A stretch of 64,000 nucleotides of DNA from Candidatus Moraniibacteriota bacterium (GTDB taxonomy: Bacteria > Patescibacteriota > Minisyncoccia > Moranbacterales > UBA1568): NCBI GenBank assembly GCA_016699425.1, contig CP064975.1, positions 654,098 through 718,097 on the forward strand. The letters run 5' to 3'. Position 1 is the first letter of the stretch, and each line of letters starts with the position of its first letter. The translations under genes and the position numbers were made by a program. The notes beneath the pieces are model-generated. The model ran no database searches. It had not been told where the DNA came from and saw only the letters and a list, made by a program, of their open reading frames with translations. Below, in pieces: positions 21 through 48,931 of this stretch.

Positions 21-1124
21 TTACGAGTTATTTCTTGAAAGGATATGAATAATACCATCGTTCTTTTCTGCGCTGACACTGATCCTATCACCCGTACGAA
101 TAATCTCTGTAGCATCCGAGACCGCCACGATACACGGGATGTGAAGCTCACGACTTGTAATAGCTGCATGAGAGTTCAGTCCGCCCTGATTTGTAATAAT
201 CGCCACAGCTTTTCGTAAAATCACCATAAACTGTACCGTCGTATTTTCAGTAACGAGGATTTCTCCCTCCTGCATTTCAGCGATTTGATTTTCGACAGCA
301 CGGAAGTCATCGCTGTAATCGGCCAATATCACCCGCGCTCTCCCTTCAACCTTACCGAGGCTCGCGCTCGTGCCATGAAGCTCTCTGGTATCCAGATTTT
401 TTGGACGAAATTGTTCTATGACTTTTTTTGTTTCTTCAAAATTAGGCTCTTCGATTTTCCCGCCTGTTCCATACAAAATGTACGCTCTTTGCCGTCGCTC
501 TACAATTTCTTGTTCGGGCATCTTTCCAGAGAAGAGATTTTTCACTTCATCCTCGGAAAAGAACTTGATATCTTGCGGGGCAACACGAAACTGCGTTGCT
601 ATCATATCAAGTACGCGGTAGAAAATATCCAAGCCAAGCTTATGCAATATTTCGCTCGAGGGAAATTTGATTTCGCCCAGTCGCTGCAAGTTATTTTGAA
701 GAAGTGTATTCTCTTTCGACTGTGAGAAGGCAAGGTCCGTAAAAATTGCTTCCGTCTTATCATGGTATACCCATATTTCTTTCAATGTAGTGGACAAGTC
801 TATCCAATCCGATTCTGTAATATTTTCCTTATCAGTAAATCGATCAATGGTCTGTCTCGCTTTTTCCAAATACACTTCGAAGTCTTTCAAATATGCATCA
901 AACTTCTCTCGGTCAGAAAAAAGTTCCAATCCCTCCTGCAATGTCCGATTCATTCCTTCTCGAAAAATAAAGCTTCGAAAAAACCCTTTATCATATATAG
1001 TCAACGTATCATGCTGACTATATTGATAAAGAAAATGCTGAGCGAACAGATACCCGATTCCTTTAAATGCAAAAAGTGGATGAAATCCCTCTTGCGTTAA
1101 AAGTGTAAAATCTGTCTTATCCAT
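21..1124 (-). CDS. Module protein: ~260 aa N-terminal domain of unknown function plus a C-terminal PEP-utilizing (swivel phosphohistidine) domain
   Basis: The C-terminus reads '...VTENTTVQFMVILRKAVAIITNQGGLNSHAAITSRELHIPCIVAV...', matching the PEP-utilizers mobile His-domain signature (GG.TSHAAI.SRE.GIP.VVG). I moved the start to the ATG at 1124 (MDKTDF...), because the ORF-track start at 1217 would overlap the upstream gene. Confidence 0.55.
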   Translation of the reverse strand: MDKTDFTLLTQEGFHPLFAFKGIGYLFAQHFLYQYSQHDTLTIYDKGFFRSFIFREGMNRTLQEGLELFSDREKFDAYLKDFEVYLEKARQTIDRFTDKENITESDWIDLSTTLKEIWVYHDKTEAIFTDLAFSQSKENTLLQNNLQRLGEIKFPSSEILHKLGLDIFYRVLDMIATQFRVAPQDIKFFSEDEVKNLFSGKMPEQEIVERRQRAYILYGTGGKIEEPNFEETKKVIEQFRPKNLDTRELHGTSASLGKVEGRARVILADYSDDFRAVENQIAEMQEGEILVTENTTVQFMVILRKAVAIITNQGGLNSHAAITSRELHIPCIVAVSDATEIIRTGDRISVSAEKNDGIIHILSRNNS

Positions 1125-1134
1125 ATGTCTTATA

Positions 1135-4100
1135 CTATGTTTTCTCCAAAATCCGCACCACCCCCTGATCCGCATCCACCTCAACCAGGTCGCCGTCGTG
1201 GAGGATTTGTGTTGCAATTTTCGTACCGATGATACAGGGTTTCCTCATTTCACGTGCGATGATGGCAGCGTGGCATGTCACCCCTCCTTCATCAGTCACG
1301 AACGCAATGGCCTTCTTCATAATCGTCATCATATCCGGCGTCGTCATCGCCGTGACGAGTACATCACCCTCCAGAACACCATCGAAGTCTTTTCTCCTTA
1401 CCACCAACCTCACCCGTCCTTGAATCTTTCCTTTGAACGCCACTGTCCCACGCACCTCACCTCCTTTTACAGGTTGATCGATATACTGTTCCTTGAGCCT
1501 CGCAATCTCTTCTTGGTCGGCAGTGAAAATGGTCGATCCCGGAGTAACGGTCGCGAGAAAATAATCTTTCTTCCGGTTCTCGATTTCTTCTTTGGTAGGA
1601 ATAGTGCCGTCGAGGATTTCAGCTACCCGTAACCTCATCAGGTCTTTCAGACTCATATCGTAGACGTCTGCCACTGCTCGCAAGAGTGGTCTCACCGTTG
1701 AGATAATACGATTGAGGTAGTCCGTACGATAGGTGCGGAAATACACCAGCTCTTTTGCTACTCTTACTATCTCCTTCTCTTCACCTGAGAGATTGAGGCG
1801 CTGTAGGTATTTCTCAGACTCAACACTATGCTTTTTTTTCCTTTCAATATTTTCAACACTCTCTTTTTCAAAATCAATATCCATCCCGACGATACGGTCA
1901 TAGATATCTTGCGGACTCCAGCTTTCATCGAGTCCCCCGCGCGCGTTGATCCAACCGTACTCATCAGCATGTTGGACCAGAAGCCTTTTCGCCTGGTCGG
2001 AAAGTGCTGCATAGGAGGAGGCCTCTTCCGCGACAACTACCGCTCCTATCTTATAAAGATTTTCCTGCTCAAAAGCAGCGAGATTTTCCTTTTCTGGAAA
2101 GGATAAAAATGAGAGTGCCTCATCGGGATTGCCTGCTCTCTGTGCAATTTTCCTCAATGCCTTTTCAATCGGGCTTTCGAGATAGAAACCCAGCAAGGAA
2201 ATCGAAAAAATCTTGTACCTTTCAAAGAATTCACGTGCCAATTTCAAGACATCTCCTTTCTTCATGTCTCGATAATCTCTCTTTGAGAGTGCGAGAGCCA
2301 CATCGTATACTTCTTCACCATACCGATAGATATTGGTGAACATGGTATCAAAATATCCTTTCTCATTTTTTGATTTCTCGTAAAGGTGTTCCCCAAATCC
2401 AGTGGCATCTGGTCCATAATTATATGTCCCACTCACATACGCAGAACGGACATAATAATCCGTGAGGAATATCTTCTGATACGTGCCAAAATCGGCGTAC
2501 GCCTGGATGAAGAGATCCGATATCAACGGCACATACTCTCGAGCAACGACCTTCTTCAGTTTCGATCCGCCAAAGGAAGCCTGCGAGAGTATGACCCGCA
2601 CCATCCCGTGGTCCGCCACGCCTGAGGACGGGCAGGCATCGACCTCCACCAGGTCACCGTCTTTCAAAACCTGGGTTGCGATCTTGGTCCCGATGATGCA
2701 GGGTTTCTTCATCTCCCGTGCGACAATCGCCGCATGGGAAGTGATTCCGCCCAAATTTGTCACGAAAGCAGAGGCTTTTTTCATGCCCATGATATATTCC
2801 GGCATCGTTTCATTGGCCACGACGACATCGCCTGCCTGTATTTTCTCGAGATCTCTCACATCAATAACAATCCTTGCGACACCGGTTACGTGACCCTTGA
2901 AGGCTACCGTTCCAGAAACAGATTGCTGATGAGATAAATCTACACTTCCGAATATTTTCAATTTTTCCTCAAGTTCCTTTCCAAAATAAAGCCGGAAATC
3001 ATCTCCGATGAAAGACATTCCGAAGCTATTTGATCGCTCAATGAGATTTTCAGGTAAGCTACCCCCCCGACACAAATCAGCGATTTCAGCAGGCATCATC
3101 AAGTCAAGTTCTGTCCTCGTAATACCGAACTTCAAAGCGAGCGCATCAAATGCATCCCAACAGGTACACATGACCTTGTTGATAGTCTCCGCATTGACTG
3201 ACCGATAATAAATAAGTTTCCGAAGCACTGAAAGTTTTTCAGTCAGAGATTCCCCTAAGAAGGTAATATTTTCTCCGGGCTCCTGTATTCCCTCTGCGAG
3301 TGCCATCACCTTTTCATGTTCAATCTCCTCTCGTTTCAATTTCTTCCCACCGAGATAACTCGCTCCCATCCAATAATATTTTTTAAGAAAATCTTCTTCC
3401 TCTCCGGGAACCAGATTCCGAAGCGCTTCCTTATACTGCATCAGATACGTCGGCTTGAAGGGAATAAGCAACTTCGCAAAGGTATCCGATGACAAATCGC
3501 ATTCCTCCGCAAACTCGGGAACGATCGGCTCCAACCCCCTGTCACAAAAGTGTATGAGCATCGAACAGCAGGCAATATCGGCGTATGCATCCATAAGAGC
3601 AGGGATGTCTTTTCCCAGAGCAGCCTCATTGGCGCGACGCAATGATTCCTCGCATACGGAGAAAAAATCTTGAAACCAGGATCGATCCTCTGAAAACTTT
3701 TTCTGAATGAATACCTCGAATAATTGATGATCCTTTTCCAAGGCATAGACAAAGCCATCCACATTTATGGCACCCGCCAAAAATCCATCCGGCACTACCA
3801 ATTGCTTGTATGCCCGGCTGCGCGCATAGCAATTCCATGGACCATTCCCGAAAATAGACATCCTCCATCTCCCCCAAAACCGCCACTTATTCACATTAGT
3901 AAGGAGATCCCATTCCACTTTGTCTACTACCCGCACCACCCCGTTGTCTGCATCGACTTCGACCAGGTCGCCGTCATGCAGGACCTGGGTCGCGATCTTG
4001 GTCCCGATGATGCAGGGCTTTTTCATCTCCCGTGCGACAATCGCCGCGTGGCACATGACACCGCCCTCGTCGGTGACAAAGGCGGTGGCTTTCTGCATCG

Positions 4101-4521
4101 CGGGCACATAGTCGGGTTCTGTCAACACGGAGACGATCACATCGCCTTCCCTAACCTTCACCAAGTCACGGCGACCGGTGATGACACGTACCACACCCTT
4201 CACATGACCCCGGTACGCAACCGCCCCAGAAAACTCGTCGATATCTACATCGACCGTTTCAAACATCAGGTTATTTTCCGTCATCTTTACGGCTAACGTA
4301 GACATTGGATAGACACTGCCATCGAGTATGAATGCTCCTTCCGTTACCCGCATCTCCAGTTCATTCACCAGCTCATCGTCCCCTCCGGCCGCAAGCCTGG
4401 GTATCTCTGCAGCCGCGATGACATCAGAGAATCGTGCATATTCCGGTAGCAATTTCTCGAACGACTCCTTGAGGAACATCGCCATTGAAGCCTGAAATAT
4501 ATCGTGCTCATCGCATACCAA
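1135..4521 (-). CDS. Large multidomain protein with three PEP-utilizing swivel phosphohistidine domains, each preceded by a ~300 aa domain of unknown function
   Basis: Three copies of '...VTDEGG(V/I)(M/T)CHAAI(V/I)AREM(K/R)KPCIIGTKIATQ(V/I)L(H/K)DGDLVEVDA...' lie at roughly aa 100-200, 540-640 and 1030-1128. The more likely start is the ATG at 4485; the track start at 4521 is a TTG. The gene overlaps the 3' end of the upstream 1521-aa ORF in another frame. Confidence 0.6.
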   Translation of the reverse strand: MVCDEHDIFQASMAMFLKESFEKLLPEYARFSDVIAAAEIPRLAAGGDDELVNELEMRVTEGAFILDGSVYPMSTLAVKMTENNLMFETVDVDIDEFSGAVAYRGHVKGVVRVITGRRDLVKVREGDVIVSVLTEPDYVPAMQKATAFVTDEGGVMCHAAIVAREMKKPCIIGTKIATQVLHDGDLVEVDADNGVVRVVDKVEWDLLTNVNKWRFWGRWRMSIFGNGPWNCYARSRAYKQLVVPDGFLAGAINVDGFVYALEKDHQLFEVFIQKKFSEDRSWFQDFFSVCEESLRRANEAALGKDIPALMDAYADIACCSMLIHFCDRGLEPIVPEFAEECDLSSDTFAKLLIPFKPTYLMQYKEALRNLVPGEEEDFLKKYYWMGASYLGGKKLKREEIEHEKVMALAEGIQEPGENITFLGESLTEKLSVLRKLIYYRSVNAETINKVMCTCWDAFDALALKFGITRTELDLMMPAEIADLCRGGSLPENLIERSNSFGMSFIGDDFRLYFGKELEEKLKIFGSVDLSHQQSVSGTVAFKGHVTGVARIVIDVRDLEKIQAGDVVVANETMPEYIMGMKKASAFVTNLGGITSHAAIVAREMKKPCIIGTKIATQVLKDGDLVEVDACPSSGVADHGMVRVILSQASFGGSKLKKVVAREYVPLISDLFIQAYADFGTYQKIFLTDYYVRSAYVSGTYNYGPDATGFGEHLYEKSKNEKGYFDTMFTNIYRYGEEVYDVALALSKRDYRDMKKGDVLKLAREFFERYKIFSISLLGFYLESPIEKALRKIAQRAGNPDEALSFLSFPEKENLAAFEQENLYKIGAVVVAEEASSYAALSDQAKRLLVQHADEYGWINARGGLDESWSPQDIYDRIVGMDIDFEKESVENIERKKKHSVESEKYLQRLNLSGEEKEIVRVAKELVYFRTYRTDYLNRIISTVRPLLRAVADVYDMSLKDLMRLRVAEILDGTIPTKEEIENRKKDYFLATVTPGSTIFTADQEEIARLKEQYIDQPVKGGEVRGTVAFKGKIQGRVRLVVRRKDFDGVLEGDVLVTAMTTPDMMTIMKKAIAFVTDEGGVTCHAAIIAREMRKPCIIGTKIATQILHDGDLVEVDADQGVVRILEKT

Positions 4522-7500
4522 AATGCGCAGACATCAGCATACAGACGACCGAATTCCGCGACATCTTCTATTTTTTTCTCCCCCCGGAGATACGGCACGA
4601 CCTTTTGCCACTGCGATTCCGTATGGTCGATCATCCGTTTCCGTAATACTGAATCGGCGTTTATTCGCTTCAGTGCTTCAGCTTCAATTTCAGCAAGCTC
4701 GGCCGCATCATACCAGACACTGCGCGCCCGACCTTTCGGGGGGACCAGCATAATCGTATGTGATATGGACTGTCGCGTGAAACGCTCTAGCCCTTCCTTA
4801 TCACTCTGATACCAGATCATCATATACATGAGCGGTCGGCCATCGCGTTCGAAAAACTTTGAAAGAACTTGCGGAGTCGTTGTACTCGGATCACTGCTTT
4901 CGTTATTCTGCGCGACATCGTCCCGCTCACTGATTTCTTGTTCATTCCCCGTATGACCCCGTCTTCCCACCCGCTCGATCATCCGCACCACCCCGTTGTC
5001 TGCATCGACTTCGACCAGGTCGCCGTCTTTCAAGACTTGTGTCGCAATCTTGGTGCCGACGACACAAGGAATCTTCAATTCGCGAGACACTATCGCGGCA
5101 TGACAAGTTATGCCTCCCGTATCGGTAACAATAGCAGCCGCTTTATTCATTGCCGGAACCAAAGAGGGGTTGGTAGATATACTGACCAAGATATCCCCTT
5201 CGTTGAACTTCACCAGGTCATGTTTTGAGTTAACTATTTTCACGGTACCTTTCGCACCTCCATGGTACGCAACAGCACCTTTCAACGTACCCATCTCATC
5301 GATATCTTTGTCCTCGGCCATGCTGAACAGAGCCTTCATCCCTTTTGCCTCATCTCCAGAATATATCTCGTCTTTGCCATCCACCATTATGTAGGAACAG
5401 CATGTATATCTTTTTTTCATCTCCTCCTTTGTCACGGAAAGCCCGCCATCTACAAGCATTTTTCTAAATTCCTTTGGTAACAGATATCTTGTGTGCAACT
5501 TATTGAGAGAGAACCTTTTCGATACTTCTTCATACCATCTATCCATTGCAAAATTCAGAAGGAATGAATACTCTTTCCTCAATTCTTTCAAAAGTGACAA
5601 ATCTTTCAGAGAATTGATAGTCGACACCTCTTCTTCGCTTAATCCTTCACACGCTCTTGCCTGAAGATCTTTAAGGTCCCGAGATTCCTGCTCTCTCTTT
5701 ATTATTTCGTCTTCAACAGCAGTGGGGATCTTACGTTTCAGTAGATAAAAATAGTAGTCCGGTTTAGCGGCTGGTCCTAAATAATAATATTGCAACCAAC
5801 CAAAGTTTACCGAGAGCGCTTCCAGCTTGTCACGAATACCCTTTGGAAGTTCTGTGTACGTTTTTGCACGGAGCAATCTTTCCTCTTGCAGCTTATCGTT
5901 TTTTACGTCTCTCGCGAGGTTCAACACAGCATTTATCTCTGCGGTTAATACATTTGGCTCTGTTGGCGATACCAATTTACTAAAAATGATTTCCGGGTTT
6001 CCAAACTTTTCAAGTTTCTTCCAGACATCATTTTTTACCTTATCGGATAGTTTTTCTTCTCCCATGTCAATAAACTGACCGACCAGGCCCCAAGCCCACA
6101 TGTCGATCCACGTTCGATAGTTTTCATCGTATAGAGCGAATAATTCTCTACTTGTCTTCTTGCTAAGATCCGAATCAATAAGTTCTCTCGAGAATTTTTT
6201 TATGAACTCAAATGAATTGTTCAAGCCGTTTGAAATATCGTCTAAGAATGCTGGATTCTCTTTTAGCTTATGAGAAAAGTATTTTCCTGCTTTGGAAAAC
6301 TGATCAGCATCAGCACCCCACAAGACAACCTCTTTTTCAAAATAGAACAGGTTGTCTAACGGTGGTAAATCACCATGAGACAATTCGGAGAGACTCTTCC
6401 TAAACACGTCGTTAAGCACACACCAAGGATTCAGGGGAACGTCTCTGTCCTCAACAAAAATAGAAAACTTTCTCTCCCTCGTTCCATTTGCCTCTTGCCG
6501 CAGTGTCGTGATTGGCCGGCTTTGCACATCGTCAGACTTCTCGCTCGCCCGCTCGATCACCCGCACCACCCCATGATCCGCATCCACCTCCACCAGATCA
6601 CCATCATGGAGAACTTGCGTCGCGATCTTGGTTCCAACAATACACGGAATGTTGAGTTCTCTCGAAACAATAGCCGCATGTGAGGTCGCACCACCAGTAT
6701 CAGTTACAACCGCAAGTGCCTTCTTCATAGCAGGAACAAACTCCGGAGCGGTATATTCGGTCACCAGTACCTGCCCTTCCTGAAATTGCTGGATTTCTCT
6801 GCTCGATCTGATTATCTTCACAACGCCCCTGGCGTACCCATGACATCCGATCTTTCCGCTGATCACATTTTGGTCAGGGGTTTCTAGATGATCAATGTAC
6901 TGCGCTTTCAGCAGCGCCACTCGCTCCACCGCCTCGTCCCCTTCGCTTATTTCGATATCGTCGAAAGGCACGTGGAAATAAAGCGTCGCTTGCCGGCGTT
7001 TATCCATGAGCTCTTTCATGCCTTCTCTTTCGCCCCGTAAAGCCCTCTGTATATCTGGGATATGCAACTCTTGAAGTTCCGCGATACTGCATCTGAGTGT
7101 TTGTGCACAGTTATCCCATAATCTCTCAAAAGCAAATTTGGTATACGGCACCACGTACGTCGATATCTCATCTTTGAAGAAGAGTATGTGACTCAGGTAT
7201 TCAACCTCAGTTTGAATGACCGATGGGATCACAGGTTCCCGCTTCAAGCCCGTATGGACGGCGGAAGCGATATCGGGGATAAATGATTCAGGTGTGCGCT
7301 TACCGAGATTGAGCGCAGTCAAATACGCATACTTTGCAGCAAAAGCCGAAAACGCCTCCCCAAAGGATGGGTCACTCTTGCGCAAGTTTTCGACATCCGC
7401 TGTGCTCGGTTGCGTATCTTTGAAATACCTCTCTTTCAAAGCCACTGCATCCACGTGATGTTGTCCGAGATACGTCGCTCGTTTCGGATAGATGTACGCG

Positions 7501-8930
7501 CTCACTGATGTGTCGAATCCGCTCTCCTTGAGCTTTCCATTTGCCTGTTCTTCGATCGCTTCACTCAGGAGATAGAGTGCATTACTCATCGGATATATCT
7601 TTGCAGTCGCCTGAGAGAGTACCTCTAGATACCGGGTAAGCTCTTCGGCCGTATAGTTTCTATCTGCTTCCAGTTCCTTTTCCAGGTCATAGAGATGCTT
7701 CATTTGCATCGAATACTCGTCATACAGATTCTCGAAGAAAGTATCAGAAAGTCTGTCTTTGAGCGCTTCGTACAATATATTTTTCGCACCGACTTGGATG
7801 TGCCCCTCAAACTGGTCGTCTTTCACAATATAAAACACCCCGACATCGGTACCGGAAATATTTCGGTACTGCTTCAGATATTCATCGTTGATCCACAGAG
7901 AGAGCCAGAGTGGCGGATGATACTCCTTAAAGGTCAGTTCGAATTTCAAATCTTTCTCGATAATATTTTCTTCGGTCGGAGCGTCGAGCGTCGTGATGGG
8001 CCGGCTCTGGACAATGTAAAACTTACCGTCTTCATACGCCCACTCGATATCACAGGGGAAACCATAGTGATTCTCTATCTTTATGATGAGATCGGAAAGC
8101 TCGAGGATTTGCTCATCGGAAAGTTTCTGCTGATTTTTTTTCTCGAGAGAAATTTCCTGCCACTCATTCCCTCCTGATCCGGCACGATAAATCCCCCGCT
8201 CTTGTTCAGCGATGTTTTTGTCGATGATACGGCGCGGCTCTTTCTCGACAACATAGCTATCCGGCGTGATCTGACCCGAGACGATCGCCTCACCGAGGCC
8301 AAAGCCGGCTTCGATGATGAGCTGATTGTGGTCCTCGGTCACCGGATGCACCGAAAACGCGATGCCGGAAACTTCCGACTCGACCATTTTCTGTACGACG
8401 ACCGCCACGGAAATCTTCTCTGCATGCAATCCTTTTTCGAAACGATAGAAGACGGCGCGGGGTGTGAACAAAGACGCCCAGCACCGCTGCACATTCTGAA
8501 GGAGCGTCGCCTCGGTCGTATTCAGGAAACTGTCGAGCTGCCCGGCCCAGGCAGCGCTCGCCGAGTCTTCGGCCGTCGCGCTCGATCGCACCGCCACGAA
8601 TGGTGCGTCCAGTTTTCTGAACGTCTCGAGGACTTCACTCGCGATATCCTCCGGCATCTTCGCCTCGAGGATAAATTTCTGGATTTTCTCCGAGGCGTGC
8701 TCGACACTCCGCATCTCGTCTGTCTTCACGGTATGCAGGATCGCATCGATCTCCACACTGAGATCGGTTTCGTCGAGGAACCGTTCGAACGCGTCAGCGA
8801 GCAAGACGAACCCAGGCGGCACGGGTATCCCCGCTCGAGTCATCTCCCCGAGTGACGCCCCCTTTCCACCCGCGATCGCGGCATTATTCTTTGAAAGCTG
8901 TTTAAAATCTCTTACAAATCCCATAAGCAT
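4365..8930 (-). CDS. PEP-synthase-like (PpsA/PPDK N-domain) ATP-binding protein fused to two (unknown domain + swivel phosphohistidine domain) modules; no PEP/pyruvate TIM-barrel domain
   Basis: The N-terminal ~330 aa align to the E. coli PpsA nucleotide-binding domain: 'AIAGGKGASLGEMTRAGIPVPPGFVL', 'AVRSSATAEDSASAAWAGQLDSFLN' and 'DIEWAYEDGKFYIVQSRPITTL'. Swivel domains sit at ~aa 690-790 ('TDTGGATSHAAIVSRELNIPCIVGTKIATQVLHDGDLVEVDADHGV') and ~1290-1390 ('TDTGGITCHAAIVSRELKIPCVVGTKIATQVLKDGDLVEVDADNGV'). The last ~40 aa look like out-of-frame translation (Arg/Ser-rich). Confidence 0.65.
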   Translation of the reverse strand: MLMGFVRDFKQLSKNNAAIAGGKGASLGEMTRAGIPVPPGFVLLADAFERFLDETDLSVEIDAILHTVKTDEMRSVEHASEKIQKFILEAKMPEDIASEVLETFRKLDAPFVAVRSSATAEDSASAAWAGQLDSFLNTTEATLLQNVQRCWASLFTPRAVFYRFEKGLHAEKISVAVVVQKMVESEVSGIAFSVHPVTEDHNQLIIEAGFGLGEAIVSGQITPDSYVVEKEPRRIIDKNIAEQERGIYRAGSGGNEWQEISLEKKNQQKLSDEQILELSDLIIKIENHYGFPCDIEWAYEDGKFYIVQSRPITTLDAPTEENIIEKDLKFELTFKEYHPPLWLSLWINDEYLKQYRNISGTDVGVFYIVKDDQFEGHIQVGAKNILYEALKDRLSDTFFENLYDEYSMQMKHLYDLEKELEADRNYTAEELTRYLEVLSQATAKIYPMSNALYLLSEAIEEQANGKLKESGFDTSVSAYIYPKRATYLGQHHVDAVALKERYFKDTQPSTADVENLRKSDPSFGEAFSAFAAKYAYLTALNLGKRTPESFIPDIASAVHTGLKREPVIPSVIQTEVEYLSHILFFKDEISTYVVPYTKFAFERLWDNCAQTLRCSIAELQELHIPDIQRALRGEREGMKELMDKRRQATLYFHVPFDDIEISEGDEAVERVALLKAQYIDHLETPDQNVISGKIGCHGYARGVVKIIRSSREIQQFQEGQVLVTEYTAPEFVPAMKKALAVVTDTGGATSHAAIVSRELNIPCIVGTKIATQVLHDGDLVEVDADHGVVRVIERASEKSDDVQSRPITTLRQEANGTRERKFSIFVEDRDVPLNPWCVLNDVFRKSLSELSHGDLPPLDNLFYFEKEVVLWGADADQFSKAGKYFSHKLKENPAFLDDISNGLNNSFEFIKKFSRELIDSDLSKKTSRELFALYDENYRTWIDMWAWGLVGQFIDMGEEKLSDKVKNDVWKKLEKFGNPEIIFSKLVSPTEPNVLTAEINAVLNLARDVKNDKLQEERLLRAKTYTELPKGIRDKLEALSVNFGWLQYYYLGPAAKPDYYFYLLKRKIPTAVEDEIIKREQESRDLKDLQARACEGLSEEEVSTINSLKDLSLLKELRKEYSFLLNFAMDRWYEEVSKRFSLNKLHTRYLLPKEFRKMLVDGGLSVTKEEMKKRYTCCSYIMVDGKDEIYSGDEAKGMKALFSMAEDKDIDEMGTLKGAVAYHGGAKGTVKIVNSKHDLVKFNEGDILVSISTNPSLVPAMNKAAAIVTDTGGITCHAAIVSRELKIPCVVGTKIATQVLKDGDLVEVDADNGVVRMIERVGRRGHTGNEQEISERDDVAQNNESSDPSTTTPQVLSKFFERDGRPLMYMMIWYQSDKEGLERFTRQSISHTIMLVPPKGRARSVWYDAAELAEIEAEALKRINADSVLRKRMIDHTESQWQKVVPYLRGEKKIEDVAEFGRLYADVCAFWYAMSTIYFRLQWRCSSRSRSRNCYRNMHDSLMSSRLQRYPGLRPEGTMSW

Positions 8931-18818: not shown

Positions 18819-19092
18819 AGGCTAGTAGAGGAAAAAAGGAGCGACGAGAAACAGCACCATAAACAAAGCGACGAGGGCCGAAATGATGACCCAGGAGAAA
18901 TAAATCTTCTTGTGCCGCGCTTTGAAACTCATAGGTGATTCCGTATGCCAGTATATCATAGGGACTCCCTCTGATTCAACGCACCCCTGCCCTTCCGGCC
19001 AGCCGATTGACAGCCCCTCCCAGACTGATACAATGCCGCCAATCCTCAATTGAGAGGTACTCCTCTTTAATAACCAAATACCGGGAAAGGAA

Positions 19093-19884
19093 GTGGCCAT
19101 GAAATTCCAGTCTCTGTCTGTTAAACCAATATGGGGGATGTCAGGCGTCCAGAACTTCTTCGGTGGGGGCTATCCCTTCCACTGGATGTACCAGGCACTC
19201 TTCGGAAAACGCTTTACCTTTGAAGATGTGCTCTTCGTGGCCAAGACAACGACCCTTAAGCCAAACCAGGGAAACATGCCCATGGAGACCGATGGAGTCA
19301 CCCCCCGTGAGCTCCGACCGAAATGCATCGTCTGCGGCCCCTGGCAATTCCTCATGGGAGTGATGTTGAACGCCGTCGGCCTCAGTGGACCCGGCGCAGA
19401 ACAACTCCTACGACGGAACAGCTGGCAGGATCGGGAGGACGGACCATTCATGATTTCCTTCATGTCGATCACCAAAGGTGCCGATGAGGTTGAGAGCGTA
19501 CGATTACACCTGGAAGAGTTCAAGGAATTCGTAAAACTCCTGGCCGAGCAGAAGTTCAAGTCACGCATGATCTTGCAAATCAACGTGACCTGCCCAAATG
19601 TCGGCGCGACACAACAATCAAAAGCTCGCTTCCTCCAGGAATGCCAAGGCTACCTCGCACTGACAGAACAGTACTTGCCTGGGATCCTAGTCATCTTCAA
19701 GGTCAATGTCTACACCGACATCGACACTCTGGTAAAACTCTCCTCACATCCGCAATTCGCTGGGGTATGCGTCTCCAATACGCTTCCCTGGGCAACACTG
19801 ACACGCTGGCAGCAAATCCGGTACTTCCCGTCGAGTATCTTCACCGGCCGATCCCCACTCTACCAATTCGGTGGTGGTGGGCTT
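19093..19884 (+). pseudogene. pyrD: Dihydroorotate dehydrogenase, 5' portion (aa 1-264), interrupted by an IS insertion. The 3' portion resumes at 21097..21330
   Basis: 'NAVGLSGPGAEQLL' matches the DHOD N(A)xGLxNxG motif and the protein has a TIM-barrel pattern. The reading frame continues exactly across the IS target-site duplication into '...SGRPLLPLVEDWVRRARRAGFEDHINAGGGILHPKDVNRLRKAGADSVSIGSVATLRPW...', the canonical DHOD C-terminus. Confidence 0.7.
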
Positions 19885-20987
19885 GTTACCGTTACCTTTT
19901 CAGTTGATAGTAGGGCGCTTTTTTCAAAAAGTTTTACTGCTTCTACGCCTAGTTTTACTAATGTCTCAGGCCAGCGAGCCTGTTTTTTGATACTCAAAGA
20001 GAGTGAAGGGTAACCGTTCAAATATTTAAATTTAGCTTCACAATCTGTAAAAGGCTTGGTTCTCCTCCGTATCATCCACGCATTCAACCAACACTGAGCC
20101 GAAGCAAAACTCTGAAAACCCTTGATCGTCTTCAGCCTCCCATTGAGATGGGAATTGTAGAGTTCAATGAGATTGGTGTTGTTGGGACAGCCTGGCAGCA
20201 GCAAGTAATTGAAGAGTTCCTCCTGCCGGTACGCTATCTCACTTACGATGTTTTTGAGCAGACGTTTCTCTCTCTTGATGCTCGCGGCAAAAGATCGAAT
20301 GGCGTTCGTCACATCCTCTCGTTCTCCAAACACGCTCTCCTTGAGAGCGTAAAAGAAGGGCCGGTATCGCTCTTCACTCCGCACCCGTAAAGCCACCCGG
20401 ATATTCTCCAGGTAGTGGTTGTGGCAGAGCTGCAGCCGAGCCGACGGAAAAACCTTCAGGAGAGCCTTTTTCAGGCCAGAGCGGTCATCGGCGACCACGA
20501 TCTGAAGATCATAGCCAAGTTGCTTCACTTGATGGAAGAAACGTGAGAAGGACACCTCATCTTCCGCTGTATACAAAGCCCCGAAGGGAATATCGTGGGT
20601 CAAGTAATCAATGCCGTAGAGAAAAGGAATCTTTCTCGCAAAGCCTTTGACCGCCACATACTTCCCATCCATGACAAGGATGCCCGAGAAGCGTCTCGGG
20701 TCACAGAGGGTTTGCGTCAGAGCGTCATTGGAAGGAAGTTGTGCTAATTCTCTTGTAACTCTCACGAAGGCTTGTTTTCCCGAGAGACCATATTCATCTC
20801 CTAATTTACGAAACGGTACCCCATCAATATGCTCGATCCACAGCAGTCTCGGATCATGCCCGAAGTAACGAGAAAAAGAATGTTCACAAGCACGACACAG
20901 GTAGTGATGGCTGTAGCCTTGGGAGCCATTCTTCACCGTCTCACGACTGCTGCAGCGGGGACAGTGACGTGACCATTTTTTTGACAT
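19860..20987 (-). CDS. IS1-family transposase (fused InsA-like zinc-finger/HTH + DDE domain)
   Basis: The N-terminus 'CPRCSSRETVKNGSQGYSHHYLCRACEHSFS' resembles the IS1 InsA zinc finger 'CPSCS...RNGKS..GHQRYLC..C...'. The ORF lies inside the IR/TSD-delimited element. Confidence 0.65.
   Translation of the reverse strand: MSKKWSRHCPRCSSRETVKNGSQGYSHHYLCRACEHSFSRYFGHDPRLLWIEHIDGVPFRKLGDEYGLSGKQAFVRVTRELAQLPSNDALTQTLCDPRRFSGILVMDGKYVAVKGFARKIPFLYGIDYLTHDIPFGALYTAEDEVSFSRFFHQVKQLGYDLQIVVADDRSGLKKALLKVFPSARLQLCHNHYLENIRVALRVRSEERYRPFFYALKESVFGEREDVTNAIRSFAASIKREKRLLKNIVSEIAYRQEELFNYLLLPGCPNNTNLIELYNSHLNGRLKTIKGFQSFASAQCWLNAWMIRRRTKPFTDCEAKFKYLNGYPSLSLSIKKQARWPETLVKLGVEAVKLFEKSALLSTEKVTVTSPPPPNW
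19876..19884. repeat. Left copy of the 9-bp target-site duplication GGTGGGCTT
   Basis: An identical 9-mer sits immediately outside both IS termini. Joining the flanks restores the pyrD ORF. Confidence 0.7.
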
Positions 20988-21087
20988 GCTGAATGAAATT
21001 TAAGGCTTAAAGTCAACTTTACAGCCGGTTTGAGGCTCTAGTCTAACAAGAACAACACTTTCCATCAACTGAAAAGGTAACGGTATC
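19885..21087 (-). mobile_element. IS1-family-like insertion sequence (1203 bp), with 25-bp terminal inverted repeats and a single transposase ORF
   Basis: The left end is 'GTTACCGTTACCTTTTCAGTTGAT' and the right end is its inverted complement (24/25 match). The element is flanked by a 9-bp direct repeat GGTGGGCTT (19876-19884 and 21088-21096), and IS1 makes 8-9 bp TSDs. The transposase N-terminus carries an InsA-like zinc finger. Confidence 0.75.
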
Positions 21088-21096
21088 GGTGGGCTT
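21088..21096. repeat. Right copy of the 9-bp target-site duplication GGTGGGCTT
   Basis: See the left copy. Confidence 0.7.
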
Positions 21097-21330
21097 TCCG
21101 GTCGACCTCTCCTTCCTCTCGTTGAGGATTGGGTACGGAGAGCACGCCGGGCTGGGTTCGAAGACCACATCAATGCTGGCGGGGGCATCCTCCACCCCAA
21201 AGATGTGAATCGTCTCAGAAAGGCTGGAGCTGATTCAGTCTCGATTGGATCAGTTGCAACACTTCGCCCCTGGAGGCTGCGGGCCATCATCGACCGTGCC
21301 TATGACCTGTTTGGATCAACTACGTATTGA
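21097..21330 (+). pseudogene. pyrD: Dihydroorotate dehydrogenase, 3' portion (last 77 codons), displaced by the IS insertion
   Basis: In frame with 19093..19884 once the IS and one TSD copy are removed: 'AGGGILHPKDVNRLRKAGADSVSIGSVATLRPWRLRAIIDRAYDLF'. Confidence 0.65.
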
Positions 21331-21360
21331 TTCCCCCAACCACATGCAAGGAGTGGCACC

Positions 21361-22476
21361 ATGACATTCAAAGTTCTCGAAAGTGACGCCGATGGCCGCA
21401 TAATACGGTTCTCGATAAGGCGTCCTATCAATGCCCACGGGCACGTGCGGAGAGGGCGGCAGATGTACGACGTCATTGCTGCTTCGGCAGTATATGAATG
21501 CATGACCCTCATGCCCAACAATGGTCCGGTGCTGACGACCGCCGACGCCCAGGAGTACTACGACGACGCTGTCCGAGCGTTGATCCTGCAGGGATTCGCA
21601 CCCAAACGCGCCAGGCGTTTCCCACGAATGACGCTGTACCTTCATCCCGGACTCACTCCGGCCGAAATCAAGCTGGCCAAAGAAAGCGGTATCGTGACCG
21701 GGGTTAAGTTCTATCCCAAGAACCCGATTCACGGCACAACCGGTGCGGAATACAGCGTCCCGAGCCTCACGGACATCCCCCGCGAAGTCTTCGAGTCGCT
21801 AAACGAACATCAGTTACACCTTCTGCTCCACGGCGAGTCAGCCAGCCACGATCGCATCCTCGAGCTCGAAGCACACTTCGTGAAGGAGCAACTTGCATGG
21901 ATCGTGGAGGAGTATCCTGGTCTTCCGATCTCGCTCGAACATGTAACCAGTAAAGCCGGTGTGGACTTTGTGATGCGGGCCCCGCCCAACGTAACAGCCA
22001 CCATCACGCCACAACACTTGCTGCACACCTTCGACTCCCTGTTCGAAGGCGGTCTACGGGCATTCCGCTACTGCCTACCGCTCTACAAGCACCCGGAAGA
22101 CCGTGCGGCGCTCATCGAAGCAGCGACTTCGGGCAATCCCAAGTTCTGCTGCGGTGACGATACCGCCCCTCACCCGAAGCACGGCAGCTCGCCGAAGTCA
22201 GCCAAACTCGTGGACTGCGGCTGCGCGGGCGCCTTCGTGGCACCCGTAAGCATTCCTCTCTACACGGCTGTTTTCGAACGAGTTGGAGCACTCGATGATC
22301 GCTTCGAGGCCTTCATGAGCAGGAATGGTGCCATCGCTCGCAGCTGGCCACTCAGCGACGATGACATCATCATCGAGCGCCGTCCATGGACAGTGCCCGA
22401 CGACTACCCATACGCTGACAACGTGGTGGTGCCCTTCTGCGCAGGCGAAGAACTTGCTTGGCAAGTCGCTGCCTAA
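21361..22476 (+). CDS. pyrC: Dihydroorotase, homodimeric (E. coli PyrC) type
   Basis: Collinear with E. coli PyrC. 'RRPINAHGHVRRG' corresponds to RRPDDWHLHLRDG, 'MPNNGPVLTT' to MPNLAPPVTT, 'VKFYP' to AKLYP, 'LLLHGE' to LLVHGE, 'TITPQHLL', 'YCLPLYK' to YCLPILK, 'GDDTAPHPKH' to GTDSAPHARH, and 'CGCAGAF' to CGCAGCF. Confidence 0.85.
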   Translation: MTFKVLESDADGRIIRFSIRRPINAHGHVRRGRQMYDVIAASAVYECMTLMPNNGPVLTTADAQEYYDDAVRALILQGFAPKRARRFPRMTLYLHPGLTPAEIKLAKESGIVTGVKFYPKNPIHGTTGAEYSVPSLTDIPREVFESLNEHQLHLLLHGESASHDRILELEAHFVKEQLAWIVEEYPGLPISLEHVTSKAGVDFVMRAPPNVTATITPQHLLHTFDSLFEGGLRAFRYCLPLYKHPEDRAALIEAATSGNPKFCCGDDTAPHPKHGSSPKSAKLVDCGCAGAFVAPVSIPLYTAVFERVGALDDRFEAFMSRNGAIARSWPLSDDDIIIERRPWTVPDDYPYADNVVVPFCAGEELAWQVAA

Positions 22477-22502
22477 CCCCGGTCCCACGCGACCGAACCC
22501 AC

Positions 22503-22540
22503 GTCCCCTGAGTGCGCAATGCACCAGGGACGTTTTTTTT
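22503..22540 (+). terminator. Rho-independent terminator after pyrC
   Basis: The hairpin GTCCCCTGAGTGCGCAATGCACCAGGGAC is followed by T8. It overlaps the 3' end of the convergent dus gene. Confidence 0.5.
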
Positions 22541-23552
22541 ACCTTTGAACGGAATGCGGGCTGTCTATCTTTTCACTCATGCGGTCAGAATGCTGTCGGA
22601 GGAACGCCGCGATCACGCCTTCCACTTTCTCGACGCTGTGACACTCCATGAGTGCGACCCGCAGTTCTTTGGCGAGCGGAAAATGGTTGATATACGCCTG
22701 ATAGTGTTTCTTCATGAGCTCGAAACTCTTCGTCTCGCCCCAGACGCTCGCAAAGAGCCGCGTGTGTTCGAGTGCGGACGCTATCCGCTCACCGACGGTC
22801 ACTTCCTTGGCGCCGTCAAAGAGCCAGGGGTTACCGAAGATCGCCCGACCGAGCATCACCCCATCGCAACCCGTCGCCTTGGCCTTGGCCCGCGCATCGG
22901 CGATATCCCGGACATCGCCATTTCCCACGATGAGTGTACCGCTCCCCGCCGCGATCTCCACCGCTCGCCCGACGCGTTCCCATCGCGCTGGCACTTGGGA
23001 CAGCTCTTTTTTCGTCCGTGCATGGACCGTGATGAGCGCCGGCTTCGCTTCGAGCAATACCGGGAGCCATGCTTCGAGTGTATCCGCATTGAACCCGAGC
23101 CGAGTCTTGACCGAGATCGGCAACTCCGTCCCGCCAGCGATGCAGCCTTCCCGCGCGGCGATGATGAGCTGTTGGGCCAACTTTGGGTCCTGCATACACA
23201 TGGCTCCGGCACCCTGCTTCATCACGTTTTTGTCCGGACAACCCATATTGATGTCGAGCCCGTCAAACCCGAGCTGGGCGATGAGCTTGGCTGCCTCAAA
23301 CATCTTTTCTGGGTGCGCGGTAAAGAGTTGCGCGACGATCGGCCGCTCCGCTTCCGTGTAGTCCAGGTCACGGAGGAGCGCCGCCCGACCCTTGGGGTGA
23401 CACAATCCGTCGGCGGAAACGAATTCCGTCCACAACACATCGGGCCGGCTGTGCCGGATGATATGCTGCCGAAAGACCGCGTCCGTCACATTGGCCAAAG
23501 GTGCCAAGACGAAGAACGGGCGTGGCAATGTCTGCCAAAAGTTTTTTTCCAT
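22539..23552 (-). CDS. dus: tRNA-dihydrouridine synthase
   Basis: 'FVLAPLANVTDAVFRQ' matches the Dus LAPMAGVTD..FR motif, and 'GFDGLDINMGCPDKNVMKQGAGAMCM' carries the GCP motif. The fold is an FMN TIM barrel. Confidence 0.75.
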   Translation of the reverse strand: MEKNFWQTLPRPFFVLAPLANVTDAVFRQHIIRHSRPDVLWTEFVSADGLCHPKGRAALLRDLDYTEAERPIVAQLFTAHPEKMFEAAKLIAQLGFDGLDINMGCPDKNVMKQGAGAMCMQDPKLAQQLIIAAREGCIAGGTELPISVKTRLGFNADTLEAWLPVLLEAKPALITVHARTKKELSQVPARWERVGRAVEIAAGSGTLIVGNGDVRDIADARAKAKATGCDGVMLGRAIFGNPWLFDGAKEVTVGERIASALEHTRLFASVWGETKSFELMKKHYQAYINHFPLAKELRVALMECHSVEKVEGVIAAFLRQHSDRMSEKIDSPHSVQR

Positions 23553-42858: not shown

Positions 42859-43919
42859 CTAATCGTTATTATATTCTGCGAGCTGCCCCTTGAATTCGAT
42901 CGCATAGATCTCACCGAGCGCCATAAACAGTGAGACAATGATAGGACCAATGATGAAGCCCGGCAGTCCGAAGAGTGAGATACCGCCCAAGGTGGCAAAA
43001 AATATCATCAACGGATGCATCTGCGTGTCCTTGCCGACGAGTTTCGGACGGAGAATATTATCAATCAGCGAGATAACACCAAAGCCGACGATGAGGAGGA
43101 ACACCCCTTGCCAGACCTGCCCCATGAGGAGGAGAATGATACCCGCCGGGAGCCAAACCAGGGCCGAACCGACCAACGGGATGATGGAGAGCAGGATCAT
43201 GAGAAGTCCCCAGATAGCCGGCGATGGGACACCGACGATCCAAAAGGCGAGCCCCCGAGGAGGCCTTGGATCGCACCGACCACCAGCGTCCCCTTGAGCG
43301 TCGCGCGACTGATCGAGATGAATTTCGAAGCGAGCAATGTCTCATGCTCGGTCTTCAAGGGCGACAGTTGAATAAGACGGTGGAAGGCACGATCGCCATC
43401 GATCAGGAAGTAGAACAGCGTGAAGAACATGACGAAAACCCAGAACACAAAATGGGTCACGCTCTGATACGCTGTCTGAAGCAATCCCAAGGCGTTCTGG
43501 CTGAATTGCTGGATATCTTCCATGACGCTTTCTGTGGTGAAGGCAGAATCCTTGAAGACGATCTGGCCGAACGATGTTTCTTGAACCGTCTGCACTCCGA
43601 TTTCAACAACGCTCGAGAACGAACGTTCCTCGGCGATGGCGTGGTACAGGTGATTCGCCTCTGCCACCGCGAGCGAGAGCACCGAGAGCACCGGGGTCAC
43701 GATGATCACGCCAACCAAGAGACAAGTCAGAAATGAGGCGCTCCCCGGCTGTCCCGGGATCATCCGGAGAAGCGTCTGATAGGCGGGACGGAAGAGAACG
43801 GAAAGAATTGCCGCCGCGACAATCGCTGTCAGAAACGGCTGGAAAATGAAAAACACCGTCACGCCCACGAGAAGCATGATGAGGAAGAAAAAGTAGACAT
43901 TGAGATGACGGACCTGCAT
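42859..43919 (-). pseudogene. AI-2E family transporter (PerM/YhhT-like), split by a frameshift near 43200-43260
   Basis: The upstream ORF (43197..43919) ends in '...TLKGTLVVGAIQGLLGGSPFGSSVSHRRLSGDFS*', where the junk tail begins after the conserved QGLLGG. The downstream ORF (42859..43200), in another frame, continues the family sequence 'ILLSIIPLVGSALVWLPAGIILL...PGFIIGPIIVSLFMALGEIY'. Confidence 0.5.
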
Positions 43920-46786: not shown

Positions 46787-48931
46787 TCAAGTCTCCTCGT
46801 CTTTCTCCTGCCGCGCTTCGTCGATGAGGGCTCGGACGGCACTCACATTGATATCCGGCTTGCGACGTATGGCCTTGAATTTTTTGGGTTCGATATGCTG
46901 TGCCTGAGAGAGTTTCATCGGTCGTTCAACTGAAGCATACACCCGGTGCTCCGAAGTGCGGTGATCTGTCCGGTTCGTCGGCCCATCTGTCGACTGTTGT
47001 CGGCCTGCAGGAGGGGTTTTCCCTGCGATCTGATTGCGCTCCCTGGCCACCGCTCGCTGATAGTCACGGAGACAGTCCTTGCAAAATGTCGGACGTGAGG
47101 CATCCGGCACAAACGGTACTTCGATCTCGAGACCACAAGTGGCACACACTGCCGGGTACAACACTTTCTCTGGGATGTTCACCGGCGCTTCGGTAGCCAA
47201 GGTCCCTTCGGCTGCCTCGAGCGTCGTGATAGCTGGCACGACTTCAGGTTTCGCTACAGACACCACCGGAGTCGGCATTGCTTCAAGGGGTTGGGTCGGG
47301 GTGTCCGACGACTCTTCTGGTAAATCAACAGCCACCAGCGGCGTCGCGACAGGTACCGAAACAGTTTCGGCTTTTACTCCTGGTTCCGCCATCACACGTG
47401 ACCGATCAGGCTCTGGCAGTTTCACTGGTATCGGCTGGGGAGCAATCGGCTTGGCCACTGGTTTTGGTGTCGGTGCTTCGACAACCCGTTCACGCTTCGT
47501 GATACTCTCGGTGCCATGCTGCGGCACACGCTCGCGCGGAGCCGGCCGAGGGGTCGGAGTACTCGGAGTACGTGAGGTAGTTGCTGGGCGCGGAGTGGCT
47601 GGTACTGCTAGCGGAGCACGAAGGGCTTGCTTCTCTTCTTCGGTCAGCATGCCGGTCCAGCGGCGGATCTTGTCCTCCACCTCTTCCCGCGCTGAAGCAT
47701 AGCGTTCTCGGGTCACTGCGATGACCTTGTCGTCGATACCCGGTGTCTCGACGAGGATCGGTGGCAAAGTCGTCGCCGAAAACGCATCCCCCGCGATCCC
47801 GTCGATCATGAGCTTCAGGTAGACCTGATACTTCGGCAAATTCACCATGTCATTCAACATGAAAACCGGCTCGAATTCTTTCTCGAGAAACTCCGCATCC
47901 ATCGCCCCGACGCGGAAGGAAATAATTGTCCCCGCGTTGCCGAAGATGGCGTCCCGGATCTCTTCTTCAAATTGAGTGATGTACTGATTGGCCAAGATGA
48001 GCGAGAGTCGATATTTACGTGCTTCTGAGAGGATGTTGGCAAATGAGAGGGTCGCAAAGTTCTGGAACTCATCGATGTAGAGGTAGAAGTCATTTCGCTC
48101 CTCCTCGGGCGTATCCACTCGGCCCATCGCGGCTTGCTGGATCTTCGTGACCATCATCGCGCCCAAGAGCGCTGTCGAGTCCTCACCAATCTTGCCCTTG
48201 GCGAGGTTCATGATGAGAATCTTCCTCTCGTCCATGATTTTCCGCACATCAAACGCGCTCGTCGGCTGGCCGATGATATTGCGGATGAGGCTATTCGAGG
48301 TGAACTGCCCGACCTTGTTCTGAATTGGCGAGATAACTTCCTGCAACACGCGCTCATTCCAACCGGCGAATTCGACAGTCCAGAATTGCTTCACTACCGG
48401 ATCGGTCACTTTCTCCATCACCCGCTCACGGTACGATTTGTCGACGAGGATGCGCATCACTCCCAAGAGCGTCGCACCCGGATATTCGAGGAGGGCGAGG
48501 ATGGCATTCCTGAGGATGTACTCAAGCCGCGGCCCCCACGAATCGGCCCAGATTTTCTTGAAGACACTGACGAGACCGGACGCGACGACTGAGCGTTGAT
48601 CGGCACCAACTTGCTCGAGCACATTGAAAGCGATCGGGAAGTCCTGGTCCGCCGGGTCGAAGTAGATAACGTCGTTGATACGCTCGGGCGGAATCGCCTT
48701 GATGAGTTTCAGGGCGACATCGCCGTGCGGGTCGATGAAGCAAATACCGTGACCCTGCTGGATATCCTGGATCGCCAGGTTCTCGAGCAAGTTGGTCTTA
48801 CCCATACCGGTCTTCCCCAAGATGTACATGTGCCGGCGCCGGTCATCGGCCTTGATACCGAAGACCCGCTCTTGATTGCGAAAATTGGTCTTAGCAAAGA
48901 CGGTAATCGGATTGGTATCGAGCTCGGACAT
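46787..48931 (-). CDS. FtsK/HerA/TraD-VirD4-like P-loop ATPase (DUF87/AAA_10-like) with a long Pro/Thr/Ala-rich linker and a C-terminal zinc ribbon
   Basis: Walker A 'HMYILGKTGMGKTNLL' and 'GICFIDPHGD' (compare TraD '...VDPNGD'), and Walker B 'FYLYIDEFQNF'. A low-complexity ~250 aa region (TPRPATTSRTPSTPTPRPAP...) ends in 'CATCGLEIEVPFVPDASRPTFCKDCL', a CxxC...CxxC ribbon. Confidence 0.55.
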   Translation of the reverse strand: MSELDTNPITVFAKTNFRNQERVFGIKADDRRRHMYILGKTGMGKTNLLENLAIQDIQQGHGICFIDPHGDVALKLIKAIPPERINDVIYFDPADQDFPIAFNVLEQVGADQRSVVASGLVSVFKKIWADSWGPRLEYILRNAILALLEYPGATLLGVMRILVDKSYRERVMEKVTDPVVKQFWTVEFAGWNERVLQEVISPIQNKVGQFTSNSLIRNIIGQPTSAFDVRKIMDERKILIMNLAKGKIGEDSTALLGAMMVTKIQQAAMGRVDTPEEERNDFYLYIDEFQNFATLSFANILSEARKYRLSLILANQYITQFEEEIRDAIFGNAGTIISFRVGAMDAEFLEKEFEPVFMLNDMVNLPKYQVYLKLMIDGIAGDAFSATTLPPILVETPGIDDKVIAVTRERYASAREEVEDKIRRWTGMLTEEEKQALRAPLAVPATPRPATTSRTPSTPTPRPAPRERVPQHGTESITKRERVVEAPTPKPVAKPIAPQPIPVKLPEPDRSRVMAEPGVKAETVSVPVATPLVAVDLPEESSDTPTQPLEAMPTPVVSVAKPEVVPAITTLEAAEGTLATEAPVNIPEKVLYPAVCATCGLEIEVPFVPDASRPTFCKDCLRDYQRAVARERNQIAGKTPPAGRQQSTDGPTNRTDHRTSEHRVYASVERPMKLSQAQHIEPKKFKAIRRKPDINVSAVRALIDEARQEKDEET

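Follow-up and report, generated by a model that had tools for sequence, protein, structure and literature searches.

Within a 64,000-bp stretch of the Candidatus Moraniibacteriota bacterium genome (contig CP064975.1; hereafter the window, whose coordinates we use throughout), an insertion sequence (IS) interrupts a pyrD-like gene, which encodes a protein of the dihydroorotate dehydrogenase (DHODH) family. The insertion is genuine and recent and has exact boundaries, because a near-identical strain carries the same gene uninterrupted, with near-identical flanks and one copy of the 9-bp sequence GGTGGGCTT that borders the element on both sides in the window. In all probability the element belongs to the IS256/Mutator superfamily and entered the DHODH-family gene with a 9-bp target site duplication (TSD). 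The interrupted locus consists of:

19099 to 19884, plus strand: 5′ fragment of the pyrD-like gene, codons 1 to 262 (Pfam PF01180 on the repaired protein)
19876 to 19884, no strand: left TSD copy, GGTGGGCTT, codons G260 G261 L262
19885 to 21087, minus strand: the IS, 1203 bp as assembled (1205 bp in the canonical copy, found on ten short-read contigs)
19885 to 19908, no strand: IRR, the terminal inverted repeat at the transposase 3′ end, by sequence match
21064 to 21087, no strand: IRL, the terminal inverted repeat at the transposase 5′ end, by sequence match
21088 to 21096, no strand: right TSD copy, GGTGGGCTT, by sequence match and empty-site comparison
21097 to 21330, plus strand: 3′ fragment of the pyrD-like gene, codons 263 to 339 and the stop, with SGxPL, GGGI, and IGS motifs

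The uninterrupted allele was recovered by exact look-up of the downstream gene product (21361–22476) in the contig index, which returned one Logan contig of 2487 bp from another metagenome, run ERR14173749 (locus L001). Positions 1–867 of this contig match window positions 19018–19884 with 2 mismatches and positions 859–2487 match 21088–22716 with 1 mismatch (99.8–99.9% flank identity, or three single-nucleotide polymorphisms (SNPs) in 2.5 kb), and the two matches overlap by precisely GGTGGGCTT, which L001 contains once. Deleting the IS and one GGTGGGCTT copy from the window joins 19099–19884 to 21097–21330 in frame; the repaired product is 339 aa long if it starts at the ATG at 19099, or 341 aa if a GTG at 19093 is used, and the insertion point lies exactly between codons 262 and 263. 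The intact 339-aa protein of L001 (82–1101) differs from the repaired one by a single residue, G36R, and the genes by one further synonymous change. Intact homologues, the best of which is 74% identical and also 339 aa long, align without gaps across the junction, through an invariant GGGGLSGxPL. The homologue search with the repaired protein returned that 74% protein as its best match and missed the 99.7%-identical L001 allele even though it is in the contig index; since the allele was recovered through the exact look-up of the pyrC-like product, a miss in this search does not equal absence.

These results bear out much of an earlier note on this DNA, which had proposed a very recent and possibly polymorphic insertion that displaced the C-terminal part of its target and whose removal with one repeat copy restores the reading frame. 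The repaired frame is open and the L001 allele intact, filled and empty sites occur in near-identical strains, and codons 263–339 lie beyond the IS. The predicted length of the repaired protein, 342 aa, was off by a few residues, as given above.

The limits of the element are defined by its ends as well as by the empty site. GGTGGGCTT occurs exactly twice in the window, and the 1203 bp between its two copies have GTTACCGTTACCTTTTCAGTTGAT as their left end and the reverse complement of GATACCGTTACCTTTTCAGTTGAT as their right end. The terminal inverted repeats match at 23/24 positions over 24 bp (24/26 when lengthened), a slight correction of the 25 bp and 24/25 matches reported earlier; the earlier element length and perfect 9-bp repeat stand. 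A 21-nt core of the terminal repeat is found only at the two IS ends in the window (0 expected in 100 shuffles), and the IS has a GC content of 47% vs. 57% in its flanks. A chance direct repeat was considered and rejected. With the positions fixed, two 9-mers would agree by chance with a probability of 3.8e-6.

Other explanations for the pair of alleles fare poorly. The window insertion might be an assembly artefact in which a copy of the repeat was misplaced in a long-read assembly and the real gene is intact; in the same assembly, both the IS and an AI-2E-family transporter gene seem to contain homopolymer indels, and an uninterrupted allele is on record elsewhere, in L001. However, a mis-join would not give a perfect 9-bp target duplication at both IS tips, and 9 bp is the duplication length that the IS clade makes elsewhere, which together with the low fixed-position probability leaves an artefact scarcely credible. 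It is also conceivable that L001 is a revertant that arose by precise excision between the 9-bp repeats, with the locus switching on and off. Precise excision can act on perfect 9-bp repeats, IS256 is known to excise precisely at the ica genes in staphylococci, and the two alleles are only three SNPs apart in 2.5 kb. These data fit a revertant and an ancestor alike, but an ancestral empty site is simpler, as every homologue in other species is uninterrupted, and we consider reversion quite improbable.

The transposase of the element is encoded on the strand opposite to the pyrD-like gene:

19860 to 20987, minus strand: transposase open reading frame (ORF) as assembled, 375 aa, the sole long ORF of the IS, with a Mutator/IS256-type DDE domain preceded by an N-terminal CxxC...CxxC zinc ribbon

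Judged by this predicted protein, whose N-terminus forms a zinc ribbon, the element is not IS1 but an unnamed and distant relative within the IS256/Mutator superfamily. The ORF is identical to GenBank QQR78101.1, including a read-through tail from the pyrD flank. It matches Pfam Transposase_mut (PF00872) at 43.8 bits vs. a cut-off of 21 over residues 140–298 and falls slightly under the cut-off of MULE (PF10551; 26.9 bits vs. 27.6), and its best NCBIfam models are IS256 (NF033543) and IS256_Zn_var (NF048019). All of 23 homologues, reaching down to 51% identity, keep D107, D167/D168, and E275 (in NTNLIELYNSHLNGRLK), which probably form the catalytic triad. The closest annotated relatives on plasmids are IS256-family transposases with 22–26% identity, and a scan of viral contigs with the transposase alignment found no relatives.

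The earlier note had instead described an IS1-family insertion with one transposase bearing an IS1/InsA-like zinc finger. The single transposase and the likeness of its N-terminal ribbon to IS1 hold up: the ribbon reaches the threshold of the IS1/IS1595 zinc-domain model (NF050000, 28.4 bits vs. 28) and weakly matches InsA (PF03811, 17.4 bits, under the cut-off of 26.1). Furthermore, a 9-bp duplication, typical of IS1, is present. However, the zinc ribbon is, as far as these models indicate, a feature common to the IS1 and IS256-type families, and a similar one is described for an IS256 variant (matches to NF048018, 28.2 bits vs. 27, and NF048019). The catalytic part is a different matter. The match to the NCBIfam model transpos_IS1 (NF033558) is confined to residues 9–40, the zinc ribbon, and reaches 21.4 bits vs. 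a cut-off of 100; the Pfam scan of the transposase gave no match to DDE_Tnp_IS1; and the catalytic region matches the PF00872, MULE, and IS256 models. The layout also differs, with one ORF of ~360 codons in 1203–1205 bp vs. insA and insB in ~0.77 kb. We therefore give an IS1 assignment very little credence and return to an IS256/Mutator-type element.

The IS256 family, among the closest known systems, has been grouped as p-MULT 1 among prokaryotic members of the Mutator superfamily (Guerillot et al. 2014, PMC3942029). Shared characters include a length of 1.2 kb with a single long transposase gene, ~24-bp terminal inverted repeats starting with G, 8–9-bp target duplications, a DDE domain of the Mutator type whose catalytic Glu lies within an NxxE..N..R signature, and a stop codon inside the terminal repeat. 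In contrast, the window transposase is only 22–26% identical to IS256-family proteins and lies under the NCBIfam cut-offs for IS256 and IS256_Zn_var, and its clade, so far found mainly in Patescibacteria, adds the four-cysteine N-terminal zinc ribbon and has a conserved A8 run immediately behind the start codon, which leaves the ATG out of frame. With IS1 (InsA/InsAB′) the element shares the N-terminal CxxC...CxxC ribbon, the 9-bp duplications, and, in its clade, apparent frame-change-dependent expression at an A run (A6C in IS1), while the catalytic domain is unrelated. IS1 itself uses a −1 shift between its DNA-binding ORF and its catalytic ORF, whereas in the window clade the putative frame change lies at codons 3–5, before the zinc ribbon, and is +1 (one A fewer).

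We propose that a member of this Patescibacteria clade, whose transposase has a DDE catalytic domain behind an N-terminal zinc ribbon of four cysteines, transposed into the DHODH-family gene through a 9-bp staggered cut of the target, and that gap repair then duplicated GGTGGGCTT. Both staggered-cut and copy-out/paste-in chemistry are known for IS256, and by analogy the window element may use the same. The insertion falls within the conserved GGGGLSG loop of the target protein.

Related elements show that 9-bp duplications recur in the clade. We found eight related loci in species-representative genomes (Doudnabacteria, Saccharibacteria, and one other bacterium; 46–61% identity) and one more in a metagenome, and those with both ends readable have the common tips GATACCGTT...AACGGTAAC. 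Among seven complete related elements, four (L003, L004, L006, and L009) have perfect 9-bp duplications (TTGGGGGAA, GGGTAAGGG, CACCAAATG, and TATTGGTTG), and for the IS identical to the one studied here a further one, TCCTTTGCG, is seen across L015 and L016, two samples taken jointly. The earlier note had held that the repeat could be coincidental if the family normally made no TSD; its relatives do make 9-bp TSDs, which speaks for a genuine one here. L004 lies on the same Doudnabacteria contig as a second copy, L005, in inverted orientation, a layout that suggests IS-mediated rearrangement. A metagenome scan with the 21-nt repeat core returned one related IS, L013, and also L012, where 24 nt (1978–2001) agree fully with the IS terminal repeat; these lie within an unrelated 428-aa gene (peptide TVTFSVDG) and were treated as chance. 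Among more distant transposase relatives, L025 (1682–2328) and L029 (73–498) have as neighbours a reverse transcriptase of the group II intron type (RVT_1) and a Y1 (IS200/IS605-type) transposase.

The element is multi-copy in its ~1.2-Mb (1.217-Mb) source genome. The 90% cluster of the closest homologue includes seven products of its transposase gene from a single Moraniibacteriota contig of 1,217,328 bp, one of which is QQR78101.1. In addition, a 1205-bp version is present on ten short-read contigs, each from a different run; these copies are mutually identical, and the window IS differs from them by 0 substitutions and two one-base gaps. The multiple copies, the identity of the short-read copies, and the GC contrast with the flanks all point to an element that is currently active and has recently spread. 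Exact look-up of the 375-aa transposase, the 304-aa disrupted pyrD-like product, a PpiC-like neighbour, P0121, and P0242 in the contig index gave no match.

Several observations weigh against the reading of an IS256/Mutator-type element that entered a DHODH-family gene with a 9-bp TSD. First, the transposase misses the NCBIfam IS256 cut-offs (150) with 58.2 bits for NF033543 and 47.7 bits for NF048019, which marks it as a distant relative. Second, three of the seven complete related copies, L005 (2899–4108), L007 (2893–4102), and L013 (457–1672), have intact tips and no target duplication, as expected after recombination between copies. Third, the target gene product misses all curated pyrD equivalogs, the best being NF005574 with 42.6 bits vs. 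269. Finally, the apparent homopolymer indels in the window assembly make single-base details of the IS unreliable.

Two A runs account for all the differences between the window IS and the canonical copy:

20976 to 20982, minus strand: 5′ homopolymer directly after ATG-TC, A7 here and A8 in the canonical copy and eight other lineages
19919 to 19924, minus strand: 3′ homopolymer, A6 here and A7 in canonical copies

Both window runs are one base short. At the 3′ end, the canonical transposase ends in ...FEKKRPTIN* with its stop inside IRR (TCA on the plus strand at 19900–19902, that is, TGA). The A6 run puts this stop out of frame and changes the end to ...FEKSALLSTEKVTVTSPPPPNW*, and the frame passes through IRR and stops 25 nt outside the IS in the pyrD flank. 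At the 5′ end, A7 places the ATG in frame with the transposase, whereas A8 places it out of frame. Other copies in the source genome are broken at short A runs (P0246, for example, ends in KRLLKTS*), and the window has a further gene, for an AI-2E-family transporter, with a frameshift at a G5 run. We think that the window A7 and A6 are probably homopolymer under-calls and doubt that the A7 is genuine. If it is real, the window copy would be a fused-frame, constitutively “on” allele, which could explain the burst of identical copies and the fresh insertion.

The A8 itself is conserved across diverged elements. ATG-NN-A8 with the same +1 offset is present in L014 (the canonical copy, 403–415), L032, L002, L003, L006, L007, L008, L009, and L013, nine lineages with transposase identities of 46–100%. 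In these copies the ATG frame gives a peptide of only 5–18 residues, and the transposase frame, in which the first CxxC of the zinc ribbon already lies, is shifted by +1. The downstream ORF is intact over 344–362 codons in 8/9 lineages (that of L009 is interrupted by a stop). In L007, L008, L009, and L013, the transposase frame is closed immediately upstream by a stop codon, and no start codon is present in that frame ahead of the A run in 6/7 lineages examined for starts. Since the ATG is out of frame, a full-length protein would need an mRNA with one A fewer or a +1 slide. Because ATG-NN-A8 and its offset are conserved down to 46% transposase identity, we lean slightly toward the view that the clade controls its transposase by programmed recoding at the start-proximal A8; transcription might slip to A7, or ribosomes might slide by +1 on the lysine codons. 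Relative L024 has an in-frame ATG-A9, and the more distant L025 and L028 are without an A run.

Precedents for such recoding exist outside the IS256 family. In other IS families, transcriptional slippage at A8/A9 runs is known (Baranov et al. 2005, PMC1088944). A conserved −1 frameshift occurs in the Mutator-like transposases of the ISMich2 group (PMC3942029). As in those elements, an A run of conserved length is combined here with a constant frame offset across diverged copies, which argues for recoding to make full-length transposase; unlike in those elements, where the run joins orfA to orfB mid-gene, the run here lies 5 nt after the ATG. A review lists frameshifting for IS1, IS3, IS5, and IS630, not for IS256 (PMC5009743), and our literature search found no report of it in IS256 proper or IS256-like elements. 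The conserved start-proximal A8 may represent a novel means of keeping a Mutator-type transposase in check, a lead of modest interest.

The gene that received the insertion is accompanied by two further features:

19007 to 19034, plus strand: promoter-like site upstream of the pyrD-like gene, TTGACA-16-TACAAT, 11/12, with TG
21361 to 22476, plus strand: dihydroorotase-like (pyrC-like) gene, pyrC_dimer TIGR00856, 247 bits vs. a cut-off of 293

The label “pyrD-like” is well founded in sequence comparison, and bona fide pyrD function is uncertain. The repaired protein matches Pfam DHO_dh (PF01180) at 40.3 bits vs. a cut-off of 27 and belongs to a large family of 315–345-aa proteins, confined essentially to Patescibacteria, that NCBI annotates as hypothetical and JGI as DHODH. 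The family profile recovers Lactococcus lactis PyrD (1ep1_A), the class 1 subunit of DHODB, at E = 9e-12. The family-invariant SCPN (C165), NAVGL, K49, GGLSG, GGI, and IGS align with 1ep1_A, as does N91, and SCPN, GGLSG, GGI, and IGS fall on its catalytic cysteine and flavin mononucleotide (FMN) motifs. Both proteins can be described as TIM-barrel flavoenzymes with K...GN, NAxGL, the SCPN Cys, GGLSG, GGI/V, and IGS/T, but the window family is very divergent, has inserted segments after GN and before GGLSG, and has no pyrK-like partner adjoining the window gene. We found no report in the literature on DHODH in Patescibacteria. The earlier identification of the target as dihydroorotate dehydrogenase is thus plausible, given the domain, the class 1 motifs, and the adjacent pyrC-like gene, but falls short at the thresholds of the curated pyrD models; the alignment to DHODH that it recommended recovers the motifs.

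Is the gene an actor in pyrimidine synthesis at all? It might instead be a Patescibacteria-specific paralogue with the DHODH/dihydropyrimidine-dehydrogenase fold and another substrate, in which case the insertion would be uninformative on pyrimidine synthesis. Consistent with this, the scores are low (42.6 bits vs. 269 for curated pyrD and just 40 bits for DHO_dh), NCBI calls the homologues hypothetical, and the 64-kb window contains no pyrB, pyrE, pyrF, or carAB, the pyrC-like neighbour being its sole other pyr-type gene; moreover, to our knowledge, bacteria of the candidate phyla radiation (CPR) generally lack de novo nucleotide synthesis. On the other hand, all class 1 DHODH signatures are kept, including the SCPN Cys and the Asn, Lys, and Gly motifs that bind orotate and FMN. 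The gene also adjoins, at a distance of 31 bp, a homologue of the homodimeric-type dihydroorotase, and the pair is kept in a 63%-identical Moraniibacteriota relative. A paralogue with another substrate is, in our view, possible rather than probable, and we continue to regard the gene as a divergent DHODH-family member.

In the interrupted allele, the frame of the 5′ fragment continues into the IS and stops at 20011–20013, giving a product of 304 aa (ATG 19099) or 306 aa (GTG 19093) that ends in 42 IS-encoded residues and lacks the final two beta/alpha units, where the FMN-phosphate motifs GGGI and IGS lie. Judging from this truncated product, the interrupted allele would almost certainly be null, and because those two units are removed, whatever activity the pyrD-like protein has is very likely lost. 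The pyrC-like gene is probably cotranscribed with it, and the insertion probably separates that gene from its promoter, a polar effect; no promoter was predicted reading out of the IS toward the pyrC-like gene. Loss of de novo pyrimidine synthesis may follow, if the predicted functions apply.

Together, these observations describe an ordinary IS knock-out by a previously unnamed relative within a known superfamily. Its interest lies in live transposition in a reduced CPR genome of ~1.2 Mb, where a filled and an empty site on record provide a natural polymorphism for studying strain dynamics, and in its target, one of the few nucleotide-metabolism-like genes kept by these organisms. If the gene is dispensable in some strains, this would bear on their degree of host dependence. 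The analysis also reassigns the element from IS1 to the IS256/Mutator type. One-base differences at homopolymers in this assembly need read support before they are taken as biology.

Other features of the window include the AI-2E-family transporter gene (42859–43919, minus strand), in which the frameshift at the G5 run leaves two ORFs of 240 and 113 aa. A relative has a single 352-aa gene, and the split is either a pseudogene or a homopolymer assembly error. At 21–8930 (minus strand) lie three ORFs in a row, of 1521, 1128, and 398 aa, which overlap in part; the first has one PPDK_N domain, and jointly they have six PEP-utilizers mobile-domain repeats, an unusual giant repeat architecture that is possibly one gene. 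Finally, a 714-aa protein encoded at 46787–48931 (minus strand) combines TrwB/TraG-type coupling-protein domains with a treble-clef zinc finger, in what is otherwise a housekeeping region.

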